From positions 1,829,244 to 1,893,243 of the forward strand of contig CP070750.1 in NCBI GenBank assembly GCA_020348385.1: 64,000 nt of DNA, read 5' to 3'. Numbering within the stretch: the stretch's first letter is position 1; each line of letters opens with the position of its first letter. Origin of the DNA: Candidatus Aminicenantes bacterium. Lineage in GTDB: Bacteria; Acidobacteriota; Aminicenantia; Aminicenantales; Aminicenantaceae. Below the pieces are notes generated by a model. That model saw only the letters and a program-made list of their open reading frames with translations, was not told where the DNA came from and made no database searches. Of this stretch, positions 2-20,532 are shown piece after piece. A program made the position numbers and the translations under genes.

Positions 2-661
2 GGGACGTTCATTGTGGGCAGTTTTCTCCCTTCTCTCCTGTATGGAGTTGCGCTTGGGAATGTAATCATAGGAATTCCTCTCGATGCCAACATGGATTTT
101 GGCGGAAATTTTTTCACGCTTCTCCGTCCTTTTCCGCTCTTGCTCGGGCTTTTCGGTTTAGCCGCCATCCTGCTTCAGGGAGCCACCTATGCCGCGATGA
201 AAACAGAAGGAGAAATTCAAGTAAGAGCAAGGAAAATTGCCCAAAAATTGTGGATCAAATATGCCATCCTTTTGGTTATATCTCTAGGTATATCGATCGC
301 CATCATTCCGGAAGCGTCCCAGAAATGGTTGGCCTGGATATTCACAGCCATAGTTATGGTTTGCCTTCTTCTTATCAGAAACGCACTTTTCAAAGGGAAC
401 GATGGTCAAGCTTTCCTATTCTCCTCTATTTCCTTTGGCGGACTATGGGGCATCGCAGGCGCTGTTCATTTTCCCAATCTCGTGAAAGCCAGTAACAATC
501 CCACATTAAGCCTGACAATACATAACTCATCCTCCTCCGAACTCACTCTAAAAGTGATGTTGATCATAGCGATTATCGGGATGCCCATCGTCATCGGCTA
601 CACGATTTATCTCTTTAAAGTATTCAAAGGTAAGGTAAAAACAGAAGATAAATCTTATTGA
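2..661 (+). CDS. cydB: cytochrome bd-type quinol oxidase subunit II, C-terminal part (5' end outside window)
   Basis: The frame is open from the window edge. The polytopic membrane sequence (GNVIIGIPLD...GGNFFTLLRPFPLL...GATYAAMKTEGE) matches the conserved C-terminal half of CydB. Confidence 0.75.
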   Translation, partial: GTFIVGSFLPSLLYGVALGNVIIGIPLDANMDFGGNFFTLLRPFPLLLGLFGLAAILLQGATYAAMKTEGEIQVRARKIAQKLWIKYAILLVISLGISIAIIPEASQKWLAWIFTAIVMVCLLLIRNALFKGNDGQAFLFSSISFGGLWGIAGAVHFPNLVKASNNPTLSLTIHNSSSSELTLKVMLIIAIIGMPIVIGYTIYLFKVFKGKVKTEDKSY

Positions 662-16161: not shown

Positions 16162-16866
16162 ATGAATACCATAAATATTTTTGCACTCAGTTTGGGAATT
16201 ATACTTGGGATTATTCACTTCTACAGCGAAAAACTAAAACTTCCAGATGGGGCCAACCGCTATCGCGTCATTTCATTTGCTGCGGGGATCTCTATCGCCT
16301 ATTTATTTCTCAACCTCCTTCCCCATACTTATGCCGCAGCCGATCATCTCAAGAATTTTGTTTTTGTATTTCTCCTTCTGGGTTTCGTTCTATTTCATCT
16401 CGCTGAAAAATTCATCTATAAGCATGCAGACCAAAAAAAGCTCGCCAGGGAATTAAAGGAAGTTCATTCCATCTCTTTCTTCTTTTATTATTTTATGATT
16501 GGTATCGTTCTTTATGACAAAGTTCTCACAAGTCAATTGGAGGGGATATTGTTTTTTATCCCGATCGGACTCCACGCTTCTCTGAGCACTGCTTCCTTAT
16601 CTCAAATACATGGGGATATTCGAGAGGGCTTCGGGACAAAAATTCTTCTGTCTCTATCCACAATTTTGGGCGTGATATTCGCCTTGCTCGTATCCGTCCC
16701 GAATATTCTGGACAATATACTCGTGAGCATGATAGCCGGCATACTGCTTTATATCATCGTTAAGGAATTTTTGCCTGAAAAAGAAAAGGGACAACCCATG
16801 TTTTTCTTGTCAGGAATTCTTGTGTTTATCGGATTTTACATATTAATCGAATCTATCCTTATGTAG
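16162..16866 (+). CDS. polytopic membrane protein, divergent ZIP-like divalent-metal permease
   Basis: About 7-8 TM segments. The C-terminal IAGILLYIIVKEFLPEKEK resembles the ZupT/ZIP C-terminal helix. The classical HExxxxGD motif is not evident, so this call is weak. Confidence 0.4.
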   Translation: MNTINIFALSLGIILGIIHFYSEKLKLPDGANRYRVISFAAGISIAYLFLNLLPHTYAAADHLKNFVFVFLLLGFVLFHLAEKFIYKHADQKKLARELKEVHSISFFFYYFMIGIVLYDKVLTSQLEGILFFIPIGLHASLSTASLSQIHGDIREGFGTKILLSLSTILGVIFALLVSVPNILDNILVSMIAGILLYIIVKEFLPEKEKGQPMFFLSGILVFIGFYILIESILM

Positions 16867-16875
16867 GAGAAAGAT

Positions 16876-18642
16876 ATGAGAAAATGGAAATGTTCGGTTT
16901 GCGGTTATGTTTATGACGAAAACAAAGAGGGAGTCCTGTTCGAAGAGTTACCCGCAGATTGGACATGCCCGCAGTGCGGAGCACCAAAATCAGCCTTCAA
17001 GGTCATCGAAGGTGAGGGCACAACTAGAAAGGGGAAAACAAACGTCGCGGAAAAAATCGTGGACCAGCTTGTCGCCTATGGAGTAAAGAGAGTCTACGGA
17101 ATACCAGGAGATTCCAACCTCCCCTTGACCGATGCCATACGGAAGAATGCGAATATCGACCTGGTGCTCACCCGACACGAACAGGCGGCAGCCTTTATGG
17201 CCTCGGCCCATGCCAAACTCACAGGTGAGATCGGAGTATGCATATCCATCGCCGGCCCGGGCGCGACAAATCTGATCACCGGTATCGTGGATGCGGCCAC
17301 GGATAGAGCACCTGTTCTCGCCTTACTCGGGCAAGTGCCGGAGGTTTTTTTGGGCAGCGAATCCCTACAAGAAATCCCGGAGGTGGATATTTTCAAGACA
17401 TTTTGTGTTTACGCCGAACAGCTAAGTGCAGCCGGCCAGGCTCTGAAAATCGTTAATTTAGCAATCAAAAAAGCCTACTCATCTCCAGGCCCTTCGGCTT
17501 TGAGCCTCCCGACAGATGTCTTGGTCGAACCTTTGGATGAGGCTATATGGCCTCCTAAGGCCCATTTTTTCAAACCCGATCTCCGACCGGGAGAAGCGGT
17601 CAAGGATGCGGCAGAACTGATCGCCCAGAGCAAAAGGCCTGTCCTTTTTGCGGGTTGGGGCTCCCGCGATTGCGGACCTGAGCTGCTTGAATTTGCCCGC
17701 CACATCGGAGCTCCCATCGCCACCACGTCTCGGGCTAAAGGAATAGTCCCAGAATCGGACGAACTCGTCCTCGGCGTTTTGGGATCGATCGGGAACCGGT
17801 TTGCTCCCCAAATTGTGGCTCAATCAGATTTGATCATCATTCTAGGAAGCGGTTTCAGACAACGCAATCTTGTTCCAGATATCGATATTATTCAGGTGGA
17901 TATCGATGCGACACGGGTAGGTAAAACATTTCCAGTCAATATCGGAATTGTGGGGGATGCCCACCGAGTCATCGAAATGCTGAACGAAGTTGCGAAACCC
18001 AAAAAGATGGATCCTGAATTTTTAGAATCTATCCGATCTGCCGATAAAAAGTACAAAGATTTGCTCCATCAGGACACACAGAAAACACAAATCCCTATTC
18101 ATCCGGGGGCGGTGATTCAAGCGTTGAAAAAAAAGGCCGCTAACAACGCCATTATTTGTTCGGATGTGGGAGACCATACCTATTGGTTCTATAAACGTTT
18201 TGTCTGTGATCAGCATCAAACCTTTTTATGCGCTAACATGGCAGGAATGGGATTTGGGATACCCGCTGCTGTGGCCTGCCAGTTTGCCCAGCCAGACAGG
18301 CAAGTTATCGCTATAACGGGCGATGGCGGTTTCGGGATGGCGGGGATGGAGTTTATGACAGCTGTGTATAACAAACTTCCGATCACCGCCATCGTGTTTA
18401 ACGACGGCAAATTGAAAAATATAAAAAAAGAGCAAGAAAGCTATGGCTATCCCGAGTACAGGGTGAGTTTTACCAATCCCAACTTAGCTGAAATGGCCAA
18501 TTCTTCAGGAGCTATAGGATTCCGGGTTTCGGATCCTAAGAAGCTCGAATCGGCCTTAACAGAAGCTTTAAGTTCTTCGAAACCCGCGATTGTGGAGGTT
18601 TTGGTCGCCCCTGATATCTATATTAAAGCTGTCCGCCGTTAG
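16876..18642 (+). CDS. rubredoxin domain fused to a pyruvate-oxidase/acetolactate-synthase-family ThDP enzyme
   Basis: Residues 1-48 are a rubredoxin ([10 protein letters not shown]...[10 protein letters not shown]). The rest matches PoxB-like Pyr, central and PP domains ([35 protein letters not shown]..x..FNDG). Confidence 0.85.
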
Positions 18643-18782: not shown

Positions 18783-19007
18783 ATGGCAAAAGTGCCCGAT
18801 ACACAGGAGACGACCATACAATGTATTTGTGGGGGATGTCCCTCGTATGACGATTGCATGAGAAATAACGACGAAATTTTGTACTGCGCTAGGGAAAAGA
18901 GCACATGCGAAGTTCCGAGGAACGGCTGCCTATGTGGAGCTTGTCCCCTGGCATCGGAATTCGATTTGGATAAATTGTATTATTGTGTCTCCGGTGCGGC
19001 TGAATAA
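18783..19007 (+). CDS. small Cys-rich protein, DUF2769-like
   Basis: 74 aa with 10 Cys. It has two C-x-C-G-x-CP motifs (CICGGCPSY and CLCGACPL). AAAGGAGG SD. Confidence 0.6.
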   Translation: MAKVPDTQETTIQCICGGCPSYDDCMRNNDEILYCAREKSTCEVPRNGCLCGACPLASEFDLDKLYYCVSGAAE

Positions 19008-19025: not shown

Positions 19026-19742
19026 ATGTCGTTTTTTCTGATAAAATCCATTCTAGCCCTGTTTTTGCTGGCTACTGCTGTCAGTGCAGTCATAAGCATG
19101 TTCACCATAATGGGTAAAGCAGAAAAAAAAGCCGATCCTAAAACATTGAGGAAGATTCACAAGATATCTGGTCGTATCTTCCTGCTCTTGCTTCTCCCCC
19201 TCATAATCCTGGGATTGAGGCATTGGGCCAATGTCGGCGACCAGGCCTCTCTCCGGGCTGTGTTCCACGCCGTGTTGGCTCTGGGACTCATCGTCATCTT
19301 CCTGCTCAAGGTGTCCATCGTCAAGTTTTACAAACAATTCCTTCGTTTCGCTCCTGTCCTAGGCATGTTGGTTTTTAGTTTTGCCTTTGTCGTGTTCAGC
19401 ATTTCGGCAGGATATTACGCTGTGAGAACATTGAGCGCTTCGCCGCCCCAACCTGAGGAGCGCCAAATGGATTCTCCTGAAATCGTCGGAAATGCAGACC
19501 AAGGGGCCTCTTTTTACAACACCAATTGTCTCTCCTGCCACCATGCAGATTCAGAAGAAAAAAAACTCGGACCCGGACTCAAAGGCCTCTTCAAAAACGA
19601 AAAATTACCGCACACTGGGCGTCCAGCAACCGTTGAAAACGTCAAGCAACAGCTCATCCGGCCAGCACTGGTTATGCCTTCTTTTACTAAATTAACCGAG
19701 CAGGAAATAGCAGACCTCATCGCTTATCTCAAAATCCTGTAG
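19026..19742 (+). CDS. 4-TM membrane protein with C-terminal mono-haem c-type cytochrome domain
   Basis: It has four hydrophobic helices with conserved His (KIHKISGR, LRHW, FHAV). These are followed by a CLSCHH haem-binding CXXCH motif and a distal Met (LVMPSF). TAGGAGG SD. Confidence 0.7.
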   Translation: MSFFLIKSILALFLLATAVSAVISMFTIMGKAEKKADPKTLRKIHKISGRIFLLLLLPLIILGLRHWANVGDQASLRAVFHAVLALGLIVIFLLKVSIVKFYKQFLRFAPVLGMLVFSFAFVVFSISAGYYAVRTLSASPPQPEERQMDSPEIVGNADQGASFYNTNCLSCHHADSEEKKLGPGLKGLFKNEKLPHTGRPATVENVKQQLIRPALVMPSFTKLTEQEIADLIAYLKIL

Positions 19743-19772: not shown

Positions 19773-19801
19773 TTGACAGAATGTTCGATTTTACCTAGAA
19801 T
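19773..19801 (+). promoter_or_regulatory. sigma70-type promoter TTGACA-N17-TAGAAT
   Basis: TTGACA at 19773-19778 and TAGAAT at 19796-19801, 25 nt upstream of ATG 19827. The 19773 start in the ORF track is the TTG of the -35 box. Confidence 0.45.
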
Positions 19802-19826
19802 AAGCAAAAATACAGCAGGAAAAAAA

Positions 19827-20249
19827 ATGAAAAAATATTGGCGATGTCATGTTTGCAGCGATGTTCATTACGGCGTTAATCCGCCTGAGTTATGCCCGAC
19901 CTGCAAGGTCTTGAACGCCTTCGTGGAAATTTCTTCGGCGGAAGCGGAAAAAATCTGTGGCATCGCCGAAACCACGATGGACGAGGTCGAATTCTGCGAT
20001 GCCATCGAAAGATTTACCGTAGGGAACAAATTCCAAATCAATCCCGATAAAAATAGGGTAAAAACGCTTTTGGAAGGGATTTTCCAAAACGAAAAAAACT
20101 ACGGGATGAAATACTGCCCATGCCGCTTGACTACGAAAAAGTTCGAAGAAGATCTGAAGCTCGTGTGCCCTTGCAATTTCCGGATTCACGACACCTACAA
20201 AGACAAAGAGGATGGTGAGTGCTGGTGCGGACTTTTTATCAGGAGATAA
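19827..20249 (+). CDS. ferredoxin:thioredoxin reductase catalytic-subunit-like protein with N-terminal rubredoxin-type ribbon
   Basis: The N-terminus has CHVC-x12-CPTC. The C-terminus has INPDKNRVKTLLEGI..YGMKYCPCR..LVCPC..ECWCGLF, which matches the FTR CPC/CPC/CxC cluster and disulfide motifs. AGGA SD lies upstream of ATG 19827. Confidence 0.75.
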   Translation: MKKYWRCHVCSDVHYGVNPPELCPTCKVLNAFVEISSAEAEKICGIAETTMDEVEFCDAIERFTVGNKFQINPDKNRVKTLLEGIFQNEKNYGMKYCPCRLTTKKFEEDLKLVCPCNFRIHDTYKDKEDGECWCGLFIRR

Positions 20250-20253
20250 TCAC

Positions 20254-20532
20254 ATGAATAATTTACTAATGTTTCACGGACGGGAATGCCCCCATTGCAT
20301 CGTCATGATGCCGATTGTTGACAGGCTTGAAAATGAAACAGGCATAAAAATCGAAAGGCTCGAAGTCTGGCATAACGAGAAGAATGCGGATTTGATGAGA
20401 TCTTATAGAGAAATTATCGAACCGAAATGTGGTGGCCAACTGCGAACTCCTACTTTCATGAATACGGAAACGAACGATATTCTTTGTGGAGAAGTCAAAT
20501 ACGAAGAGTTGAAAGATTGGGCCAGTGAATAG
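20254..20532 (+). CDS. small thioredoxin/glutaredoxin-fold protein, CPHC active site
   Basis: 92 aa. FHGRECPHC is followed by the cis-Pro region (LRTPTF). AGGAGA SD. It starts 4 nt after the FTR-like gene. Confidence 0.75.
   Translation: MNNLLMFHGRECPHCIVMMPIVDRLENETGIKIERLEVWHNEKNADLMRSYREIIEPKCGGQLRTPTFMNTETNDILCGEVKYEELKDWASE

Follow-up and report, generated by a model that had tools for sequence, protein, structure and literature searches.

The well-known routes for oxidative decarboxylation of pyruvate differ in the electron acceptor: the pyruvate dehydrogenase (PDH) complex uses NAD+, pyruvate:ferredoxin oxidoreductase (PFOR) uses ferredoxin, and the pyruvate oxidases (POX), including Escherichia coli PoxB, use O2 or quinone. 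Here, we analysed a 64,000-nucleotide stretch of the Candidatus Aminicenantes bacterium contig CP070750.1 (positions 1,829,244 to 1,893,243; the whole stretch is referred to as the window), in which a single gene encodes a rubredoxin (Rd) fused to a POX-like, thiamine diphosphate (ThDP) enzyme, hereafter Rd-POX. PFOR and the other 2-oxoacid:ferredoxin oxidoreductases (OFOR) resemble the proposed Rd-POX in coupling ThDP-dependent oxidative decarboxylation of 2-oxoacids to one-electron iron carriers as acceptors, but PFOR has an unrelated architecture, relies on [4Fe-4S] clusters and coenzyme A, has no flavin, and is O2 sensitive. Natural Rd fusions are represented by AlkB-Rd (PMC10113152) and flavodiiron-Rd-NROR (PMC9364112), in which the tethered Rd is reported to be the enzyme's own one-electron carrier; rubrerythrin is likewise a natural Rd fusion with a built-in carrier. 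In these systems, Rd feeds a catalytic metal site, whereas in Rd-POX it would drain a ThDP/flavin dehydrogenase. Our literature searches for Rd- or Rieske-fused POX-like enzymes retrieved no study, in agreement with the preliminary description of the locus, which knew of no characterised enzyme of this architecture. With moderate confidence, we propose Rd-POX to be a soluble 2-oxoacid:rubredoxin oxidoreductase of the cytoplasm, most likely acting on pyruvate, that belongs to the pyruvate-oxidase/PoxB lineage and whose electrons leave via the tethered Rd to co-encoded partners; this lineage also includes the pyruvate:quinone oxidoreductase (PQO) of Corynebacterium glutamicum.

Rd-POX is a single 588-aa open reading frame (P0001) on the forward strand, comprising Rd, a tether, and a complete TPP_N/M/C enzyme (Table 1). 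The first 48 residues had been described as a complete rubredoxin, and Pfam recognises the domain at aa 3 to 41, well above its cut-off of 23 bits, with both CxxC knuckles (C6/C9 and C31/C34) present; classical Rd has a longer loop separating its two Cys pairs. The linker indeed leads into a full PoxB/acetolactate synthase (ALS)-like enzyme, as TPP_enzyme_N (aa 56 to 167), TPP_enzyme_M (aa 242 to 369), and TPP_enzyme_C (aa 430 to 575) all score far above their cut-offs, and the GDG-x24-N ThDP motif is found as G482-D483-G484, 24 residues, and N509. The AlphaFold model, predicted from a 70-sequence alignment, has a mean predicted local distance difference test score (pLDDT) of 92 and a predicted TM-score of 0.88, with Rd folded (∼77 to 88) and the tether at low confidence. 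In this genome, Rd-POX is the sole TPP_N/M/C enzyme found and holds the only Pfam-level rubredoxin.

The fusion is widely conserved. A word-indexed search retrieved more than 100 clusters of 587 to 594 aa with 61 to 87% identity to P0001 and the same four Pfam domains, whose named members are mostly metagenome-assembled genomes of Aminicenantes/Acidobacteriota, with one from Eisenbacteria. Full-length fusions make up 106 of the best 120 clusters; the remaining 14 are fragments or mis-called starts. All 106 have 21 residues between the Cys pairs, a tether of 19 to 23 aa (counted from the last Cys), and four invariant Cys residues within the CxxCGY(I/V)YD and W(T/V)CPxCG motifs. Relatives as distant as 33% identity retain all four Cys as well, which settles in the affirmative the earlier query about their conservation in orthologs. 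We detected the gene in 27 of 301 sampled genomes of the class, including 25 of the 82 from the family to which the window belongs; matches uncut by contig ends run from residue 1 (or 2) to 578 to 588 without an internal stop. That the fusion could be an assembly, frameshift, or gene-calling artefact, with a stop between two genes in relatives, is therefore exceedingly improbable. No support for an artefact was found; the few database entries without Rd are mis-called starts or fragments, and against an artefact stand the location of the gene on one closed-looking 4.35-Mb contig, the 106 independent clusters, the uninterrupted junction in 27 genomes, and the identical fusion in archaea and several bacterial phyla.

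A few copies deviate from this pattern. The sole broken copy (L035/L037; G275:C13:55996-57829) is split into two frames near aa 286 to 298, in the middle of the enzyme, as a frameshift or pseudogene. Rd-POX of the cultured Methanohalophilus sp. RSK (L072:6001-7755) has one in-frame TAG at codon 386, where a Methanosarcinaceae relative (L116) has Asp; this codon is either a pseudogene mark or possibly a site of pyrrolysine readthrough in that lineage. A relative with 73% identity has a free-standing gene for a 47-aa rubredoxin (L003:5786-5929, forward strand) between the IMPDH gene and Rd-POX; in the window, the same slot (16162 to 16866) is occupied by a ZIP-family transporter gene.

The best solved relatives of P0001 by sequence are E. 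coli PoxB (EcPOX; 5e-79), the ThDP carboligase BbmA, C. glutamicum PQO, and Lactobacillus plantarum POX (LpPOX). Foldseek searches with the predicted model placed LpPOX, EcPOX, and PQO on top (TM-scores of 0.83 to 0.87), within the range of 0.80 to 0.87 covered by solved members of the superfamily, and among NCBIfam profiles, those for pyruvate oxidase and pyruvate dehydrogenase scored highest. Residue mapping with E. coli PoxB (L005) as the reference revealed that all 49 fused rows keep E102 (EcPOX E50), Q165-E166, V431, D483, and E519 (EcPOX E469), whereas the second Asn of the Mg2+ motif is replaced by Asp510 in 44 of them. E519-Q520 presumably occupy the place of LpPOX E483-Q484, and the IKxEQE segment appears to resemble the LpPOX stretch around E483. 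In the central domain, G260, G303, G306, and G324 are invariant and G262, D318, and D342 nearly so; these PoxB-shared motifs, together with family placement near flavoenzymes, suggest binding of flavin adenine dinucleotide (FAD). The alignment to PoxB ends at query residue 580 (PoxB residue 530), leaving 8 query residues, and the amphipathic PoxB membrane anchor (residues 531 to 572) is thus absent from P0001. Since this anchor gives PoxB access to quinone, its absence supports a carrier role of Rd.

Compared with its described relatives, Rd-POX shares with E. coli PoxB and C. glutamicum PQO (PDB 3EY9/3EYA and 9EV3-6) the three-domain ThDP/FAD-type fold (TM-scores of 0.82 to 0.87, ∼30 to 32% identity), the catalytic Glu, the GDG motif, the central glycine motifs, and the Glu at EcPOX E469. 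It differs from them in the missing C-terminal anchor, Asn in place of Phe465, Asp in place of the second Asn of the Mg2+ motif, the added N-terminal Rd, and its placement in a separate clade. The O2- and phosphate-dependent POX of L. plantarum and Aerococcus (PDB 1POX, 2EZ4, and 1V5E) is the top fold match (TM-score of 0.85) and PRK08611 the best profile, but the latter scores 460 bits versus a cut-off of 742, F479 is not conserved, the host is an anaerobe, and the presence of Rd suggests that a protein, rather than O2, accepts the electrons. A biosynthetic acetolactate/acetohydroxyacid synthase (IlvB/G/I) was rejected, as the genome has neither ilvC nor ilvN. Specifically, the ALS small-subunit profile (TIGR00119) had no match in this single-contig genome (CheckM completeness, 83%), IlvC (TIGR00465) reached at best 32.7 bits versus a cut-off of 226 while control genomes scored as expected, and all ALS equivalog profiles of NCBIfam scored under their cut-offs on P0001. 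Among other proteins in the comparison, P0124, P0139, P0147 to P0149, P0154, P0158, P0159, P0175, P0217, P0234, and P0249 (∼1080 to 1190 aa) carry two tandem POX/ALS-like ThDP enzymes per chain, as confirmed by Pfam for P0124, P0148, P0154, and P0217, and P0233 is a D-2-hydroxyacid dehydrogenase fused to a ThDP enzyme.

Comparative evidence for electron transfer comes from exchange of the N-terminal module. An exhaustive search of 50%-identity representatives yielded relatives with a fused Rd at identities as low as 33%, as well as bare forms at 40 to 42%. After removal of the Rd columns, a 133-row tree placed all 11 Rd-fused rows in one 15-row clade (SH-aLRT support, 84), apart from PoxB. Two of the four non-Rd members of this clade (P0204 and P0160) have an N-terminal Rieske [2Fe-2S] domain and are sister to the Rd-fused P0137/P0176 with support of 100; P0185, left out of the tree as too long, carries Fer4_19, two CDGSH modules, and a Rieske domain at its N terminus. 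According to source names, the Rd forms derive from ANME-2, Dehalococcoidia, and Methanomicrobiales, and the Rieske forms from Marinimicrobia. A scan of species-representative genomes extended this pattern: the 80 nearest loci in named genomes comprise 45 Rieske-fused, 16 Rd-fused, and 19 bare forms. Rieske-fused loci, in some of which CDGSH modules precede the Rieske domain, occur in the Roseobacter group and other Alphaproteobacteria, Flavobacteriaceae, Actinomycetes including Amycolatopsis, Acaryochloris marina, and Chloroflexota, whereas Rd-fused loci occur in Bathyarchaeia, Methanobacteriaceae, Methanoregulaceae, Methanosarcinaceae, Methanohalophilus sp. RSK, Coatesbacteria, and Stahlbacteria. 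In the Rd-POX clade, the N-terminal carrier is thus Rd in anaerobes and Rieske, or CDGSH plus Rieske, in mostly aerobic organisms. That chemically distinct one-electron carriers occur at one position favours a role in electron transfer over that of a structural zinc ribbon.

Neighbouring genes point in the same direction. In 22 of 82 distant loci, the POX-like gene is adjacent to a gene for a glutamate synthase (GltS)-type flavin mononucleotide (FMN) protein, which often bears a matching carrier. Rieske-POX is accompanied by a Rieske-GltS-like protein in three loci (L093, L109, and L124) and by a CDGSH-GltS-like protein in L114; the partners of Rd-POX are an Rd-GltS-like protein in L116 and, in L061, a protein with DUF2769 fused to the FMN domain. 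Such matching also supports electron transfer. DUF2769 itself adjoins Rd-POX in Methanobacteriaceae, Bathyarchaeia, and Stahlbacteria. The nearest unfused relative, which is archaeal (L008:264-7641), directly follows a GltS-type FMN gene, with genes for an ammonium transporter and P-II upstream and an acylphosphatase downstream. In seven loci, mostly of Alphaproteobacteria, Rieske-POX-like genes are followed by a fusion of a ferric-reductase-type (haem b) transmembrane domain and a Rieske domain (e.g., L086:8246-9313, forward strand), which parallels the DUF6529-cytochrome c membrane protein encoded downstream of Rd-POX in the window. The uncharacterised Rieske-fused enzymes have in common with Rd-POX the clade of the ThDP body, the position of the carrier, and a nearby GltS-type partner and membrane redox protein; they differ in the Rieske [2Fe-2S] carrier, the mostly aerobic hosts, and the type of membrane partner (ferric-reductase-type plus Rieske versus DUF6529 plus cytochrome c). 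Collectively, the missing PoxB anchor, the replacement of Rd by Rieske, CDGSH plus Rieske, or Fer4 plus CDGSH plus Rieske, and the matching carriers on partners lend comparative support to the earlier suggestion that Rd serves as a built-in one-electron acceptor.

In Aminicenantia, Rd-POX belongs to a gene cluster of its own (Table 1). We compared 20 related loci with wider flanks and found the DUF6529-cytochrome c gene downstream of Rd-POX on the same strand in 17, a pair encoding an Rd-ferredoxin:thioredoxin reductase (Rd-FTR) and a thioredoxin-like protein in 15, also on the same strand and always together, and DUF2769 in 11. Linkage to the cytochrome gene persists despite an ∼6.5-kb upstream insertion (L047 and L049) or a different upstream gene (L052). 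The cytochrome protein has invariant H45, H81, M25, and M29 in its transmembrane part, as well as C168-x-x-C171-H172 and M217. Its DUF6529 domain was modelled as a confident four-helix bundle, whose Atlas look-alikes include the haem-b families ferric reductase/NOX, DUF4405, COX15, and formate dehydrogenase gamma, with scores that make them leads only. Rd-FTR keeps C25/C28/C41/C44 and CPC...CPC...CWC invariant in 16 orthologues, and C26-P-H-C29 of the thioredoxin-like protein is invariant. Classical FTR catalytic subunits have CHC where Rd-FTR has CWC; a separate His139 is invariant in the latter. The true start of Rd-FTR is probably Met19 at 19827, and that of the thioredoxin-like gene may be Met15 at 20254. 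An 11-of-12 sigma-70-like site (19773 to 19801) lies just ahead of the likely Rd-FTR start, but promoter and terminator counts between 16000 and 21000 were at or below shuffled expectation, making the scan uninformative on operon structure.

Table 1. Features of the Rd-POX locus, in positions of the window
Feature	Position	Strand	Basis
Rd-POX gene, 588 aa (P0001): rubredoxin, tether, and ThDP/FAD-type pyruvate-oxidase-like enzyme	16876..18642	+	
Rubredoxin domain, aa 3-41; Cys6, Cys9, Cys31, Cys34; usual aromatic core; short 21-residue loop between Cys pairs	16882..16998	+	Pfam, 41.1 bits; pLDDT ~77-88
Flexible tether, aa 42-55	16999..17040	+	pLDDT <50 at aa 47-50
PYR (TPP_enzyme_N) domain with catalytic Glu102	17041..17376	+	Pfam; E102 aligns with EcPOX E50
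Central (TPP_enzyme_M, FAD-type) domain; PoxB-shared glycine/aspartate motifs kept	17599..17982	+	Pfam; FAD binding inferred
PP (TPP_enzyme_C) domain: GDG 482-484, N509-D510, N515 at PoxB Phe465 site, E519	18163..18600	+	Pfam, PoxB alignment
DUF2769 small Cys-rich protein, 74 aa; candidate metal-binding redox partner	18783..19007	+	Pfam, 61 bits; 11 conserved Cys
Membrane protein: DUF6529 four-helix transmembrane domain and C-terminal (periplasmic) cytochrome c domain	19026..19742	+	Pfam; transmembrane helices modelled with pLDDT 77-91
Rd-FTR: rubredoxin-like Cys4 knuckles and ferredoxin:thioredoxin-reductase catalytic domain	19773..20249	+	Pfam FeThRed_B, 57.6 bits; RUBY_RBDX, 29.1 bits
Thioredoxin-fold protein, CPHC motif; overlaps Rd-FTR gene end	20212..20532	+	Weak Pfam/NCBIfam thioredoxin matches

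These observations suggest the following mechanism. ThDP would decarboxylate the 2-oxoacid, and a flavin of the central domain would take up the two electrons of hydroxyethyl-ThDP. The flavin would then split the pair, with single electrons leaving through the Fe(Cys)4 centre of the tethered Rd rather than to quinone, as in PoxB/PQO, or O2, as in Lactobacillus POX. Swinging on its ∼14- to 20-aa tether, Rd may pass the electrons to co-encoded partners; the best-linked candidate acceptor in this locus is the DUF6529-cytochrome c membrane protein, possibly reached via the Cys-rich DUF2769 protein. Further possible clients are the Rd-FTR/thioredoxin-like pair and the Rd-fused GltS-type FMN/[3Fe-4S] protein of this genome.

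Several points weigh against this proposal. The FAD content, the product (acetate or acetyl phosphate), the direction of flow, and the acceptor are matters that we infer, as is the substrate, which is assumed to be pyruvate; the flavin in particular rests on shared motifs and family placement. No NCBIfam equivalog cut-off was reached, as PRK09124 (PoxB; 349 bits versus 792) and TIGR02720 (SpxB; 342 versus 638) fell short in addition to PRK08611, and ThDP carboligases such as BbmA score almost level with PoxB against P0001. Phe465 of EcPOX and Phe479 of LpPOX are positioned between ThDP and FAD; the equivalent of Phe465 is Asn515 in P0001 and, among the 49 fused rows, Asn in 45, Met in 2, and Lys in 2. 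Because the cytochrome c domain has to be periplasmic, electrons could reach it only through a putative haem in the transmembrane domain; a structure search with the model of this domain returned generic four-helix bundles only, at Z scores (∼14) that are ordinary for helical bundles. Synteny counts from interrelated genomes overstate independence, and beyond Aminicenantia, Rd-POX does not keep the cytochrome and Rd-FTR genes as neighbours. Finally, the genome's own Rd-GltS-like gene lies ∼600 kb from Rd-POX, and co-occurrence of the two genes is partial.

Alternative readings differ in the destination of the electrons or dispense with electron transfer altogether. The same chemistry could serve the Rd-FTR/thioredoxin-like pair, with O2-robust pyruvate oxidation driving disulfide reduction during oxidative stress, when the seven O2-sensitive 2-oxoacid:ferredoxin oxidoreductases of this organism would fail. 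We regard this as quite unlikely, even if the pair follows Rd-POX on the same strand in most Aminicenantia loci with all catalytic Cys invariant, Rd-to-Rd matching is plausible, and the seven enzymes together with a bd oxidase mark an O2-exposed anaerobe. The pair is missing from L052, L053, L057, and every distant Rd-POX locus, the near-consensus promoter-like site precedes the Rd-FTR start (though the whole scan was at chance level), and a canonical TrxB is present in the genome. Moreover, typical Rd potentials lie well above those of thioredoxin-type disulfides. Potentials also bear on an explanation to which we give similarly little weight, namely that Rd-POX donates electrons to the Rd-fused GltS-type FMN/[3Fe-4S] enzyme, so that pyruvate oxidation drives, for example, the formation of glutamate from 2-oxoglutarate and NH3 without NAD(P)H or ferredoxin. 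The adjacency with matching carriers in distant loci and the unfused archaeal pair near Amt and P-II genes speak for such donation. In addition, the genome's own Rd-GltS-like protein (L002:235-2673, reverse strand; 468 aa), with an Rd-like N terminus and FMN domain, keeps the C-x5-C-x4-C-P cluster motif, and in the window's family the Rd-GltS-like gene occurs in 15 of 26 genomes with Rd-POX versus 5 of 57 without. However, Rd-POX and the GltS-like gene are not neighbours in this genome or its relatives, and of the 67 genomes of a sister family, 24 encode the GltS-like protein but none Rd-POX. Canonical GltS centres, at about -240 to -280 mV (PMC8097209), also lie below typical Rd, which would make outflow from both flavoenzymes to a higher-potential, possibly membrane-bound acceptor thermodynamically easier than reduction of the GltS-like enzyme by Rd. 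Obligate coupling of Rd-POX to the Rd-GltS-like gene in the class is not supported, given that co-occurrence is only partial. The Rd-GltS-like gene adjoins genes for rubrerythrin and a Fur/PerR-like regulator in what looks like an oxidative-stress locus.

A slightly lower probability still is assigned to a reading without electron conduction, in which the N-terminal module is a structural zinc ribbon, or a redox or O2 sensor, and gates a ThDP carboligase or decarboxylase that acts non-oxidatively. This would accommodate the nearly equal scores of carboligases (BbmA and acetohydroxyacid synthase [AHAS]) and PoxB, the Asn at the PoxB Phe position, and the retention of FAD by AHAS-type enzymes without net redox chemistry. 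It must be set against a canonical rubredoxin above the Pfam cut-off and the lack of ilvC and ilvN in the genome; that Rieske, CDGSH, or Fer4 modules can take the place of Rd, and that partners bear matching carriers, is hard to square with a structural ribbon, although a sensor role is less affected. The proposed 2-oxoacid:rubredoxin oxidoreductase may, in turn, be the anaerobe version of a widespread, undescribed system, in which POX-like and GltS-like FMN/[3Fe-4S] enzymes with matching carriers (Rd, DUF2769, Rieske, or CDGSH) would both dock on a dedicated haem membrane protein (DUF6529-cytochrome c here, ferric-reductase-type transmembrane domain plus Rieske in aerobes). Electrons from cytoplasmic 2-oxoacid or amino-acid oxidation would then cross the membrane without NAD(P), ferredoxin, or quinone. 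We put this broader scheme forward tentatively and consider it unlikely.

The genomic context provides a setting for these proposals. The genome encodes seven POR_N 2-oxoacid:ferredoxin oxidoreductases and both subunits (I and II) of a cytochrome bd oxidase (window positions 2 to 661 and G000:C1:1827569-1828852), ∼16 kb upstream of Rd-POX, and a haem-copper oxidase was not found in it; this combination marks an anaerobe that encounters some O2. AckA (505 bits) and a PduL-type phosphotransacylase (253 bits) share one 774-aa open frame, an apparent fusion (L059:4428-6197; G000:C1:3161427-3163196, forward strand), and the sole match to canonical Pta (PF01515) is marginal (24.5 bits). The argument that AckA occurs without Pta, and hence that Rd-POX must supply acetyl phosphate, was rejected in view of the phosphotransacylase in the AckA frame.

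New here are the occurrence of Rd and Rieske forms in one clade, the covariation of carriers, and the cluster that Rd-POX forms in Aminicenantia. If our proposal is true, a ThDP/flavin enzyme equipped with a one-electron iron carrier of its own would constitute a further route of pyruvate oxidation, O2 robust like POX and with protein acceptors like PFOR. The annotation of the gene by the Joint Genome Institute (JGI) as "pyruvate oxidase" wrongly implies O2 dependence. Matching carriers on partner enzymes would represent a natural case of modular redox wiring, in a protein small enough for direct testing. The carriers of the gene are abundant uncultured lineages of sediments (Aminicenantia, Bathyarchaeia, ANME-2, and methanogens), where carbon and electron flow is modelled from gene content alone.

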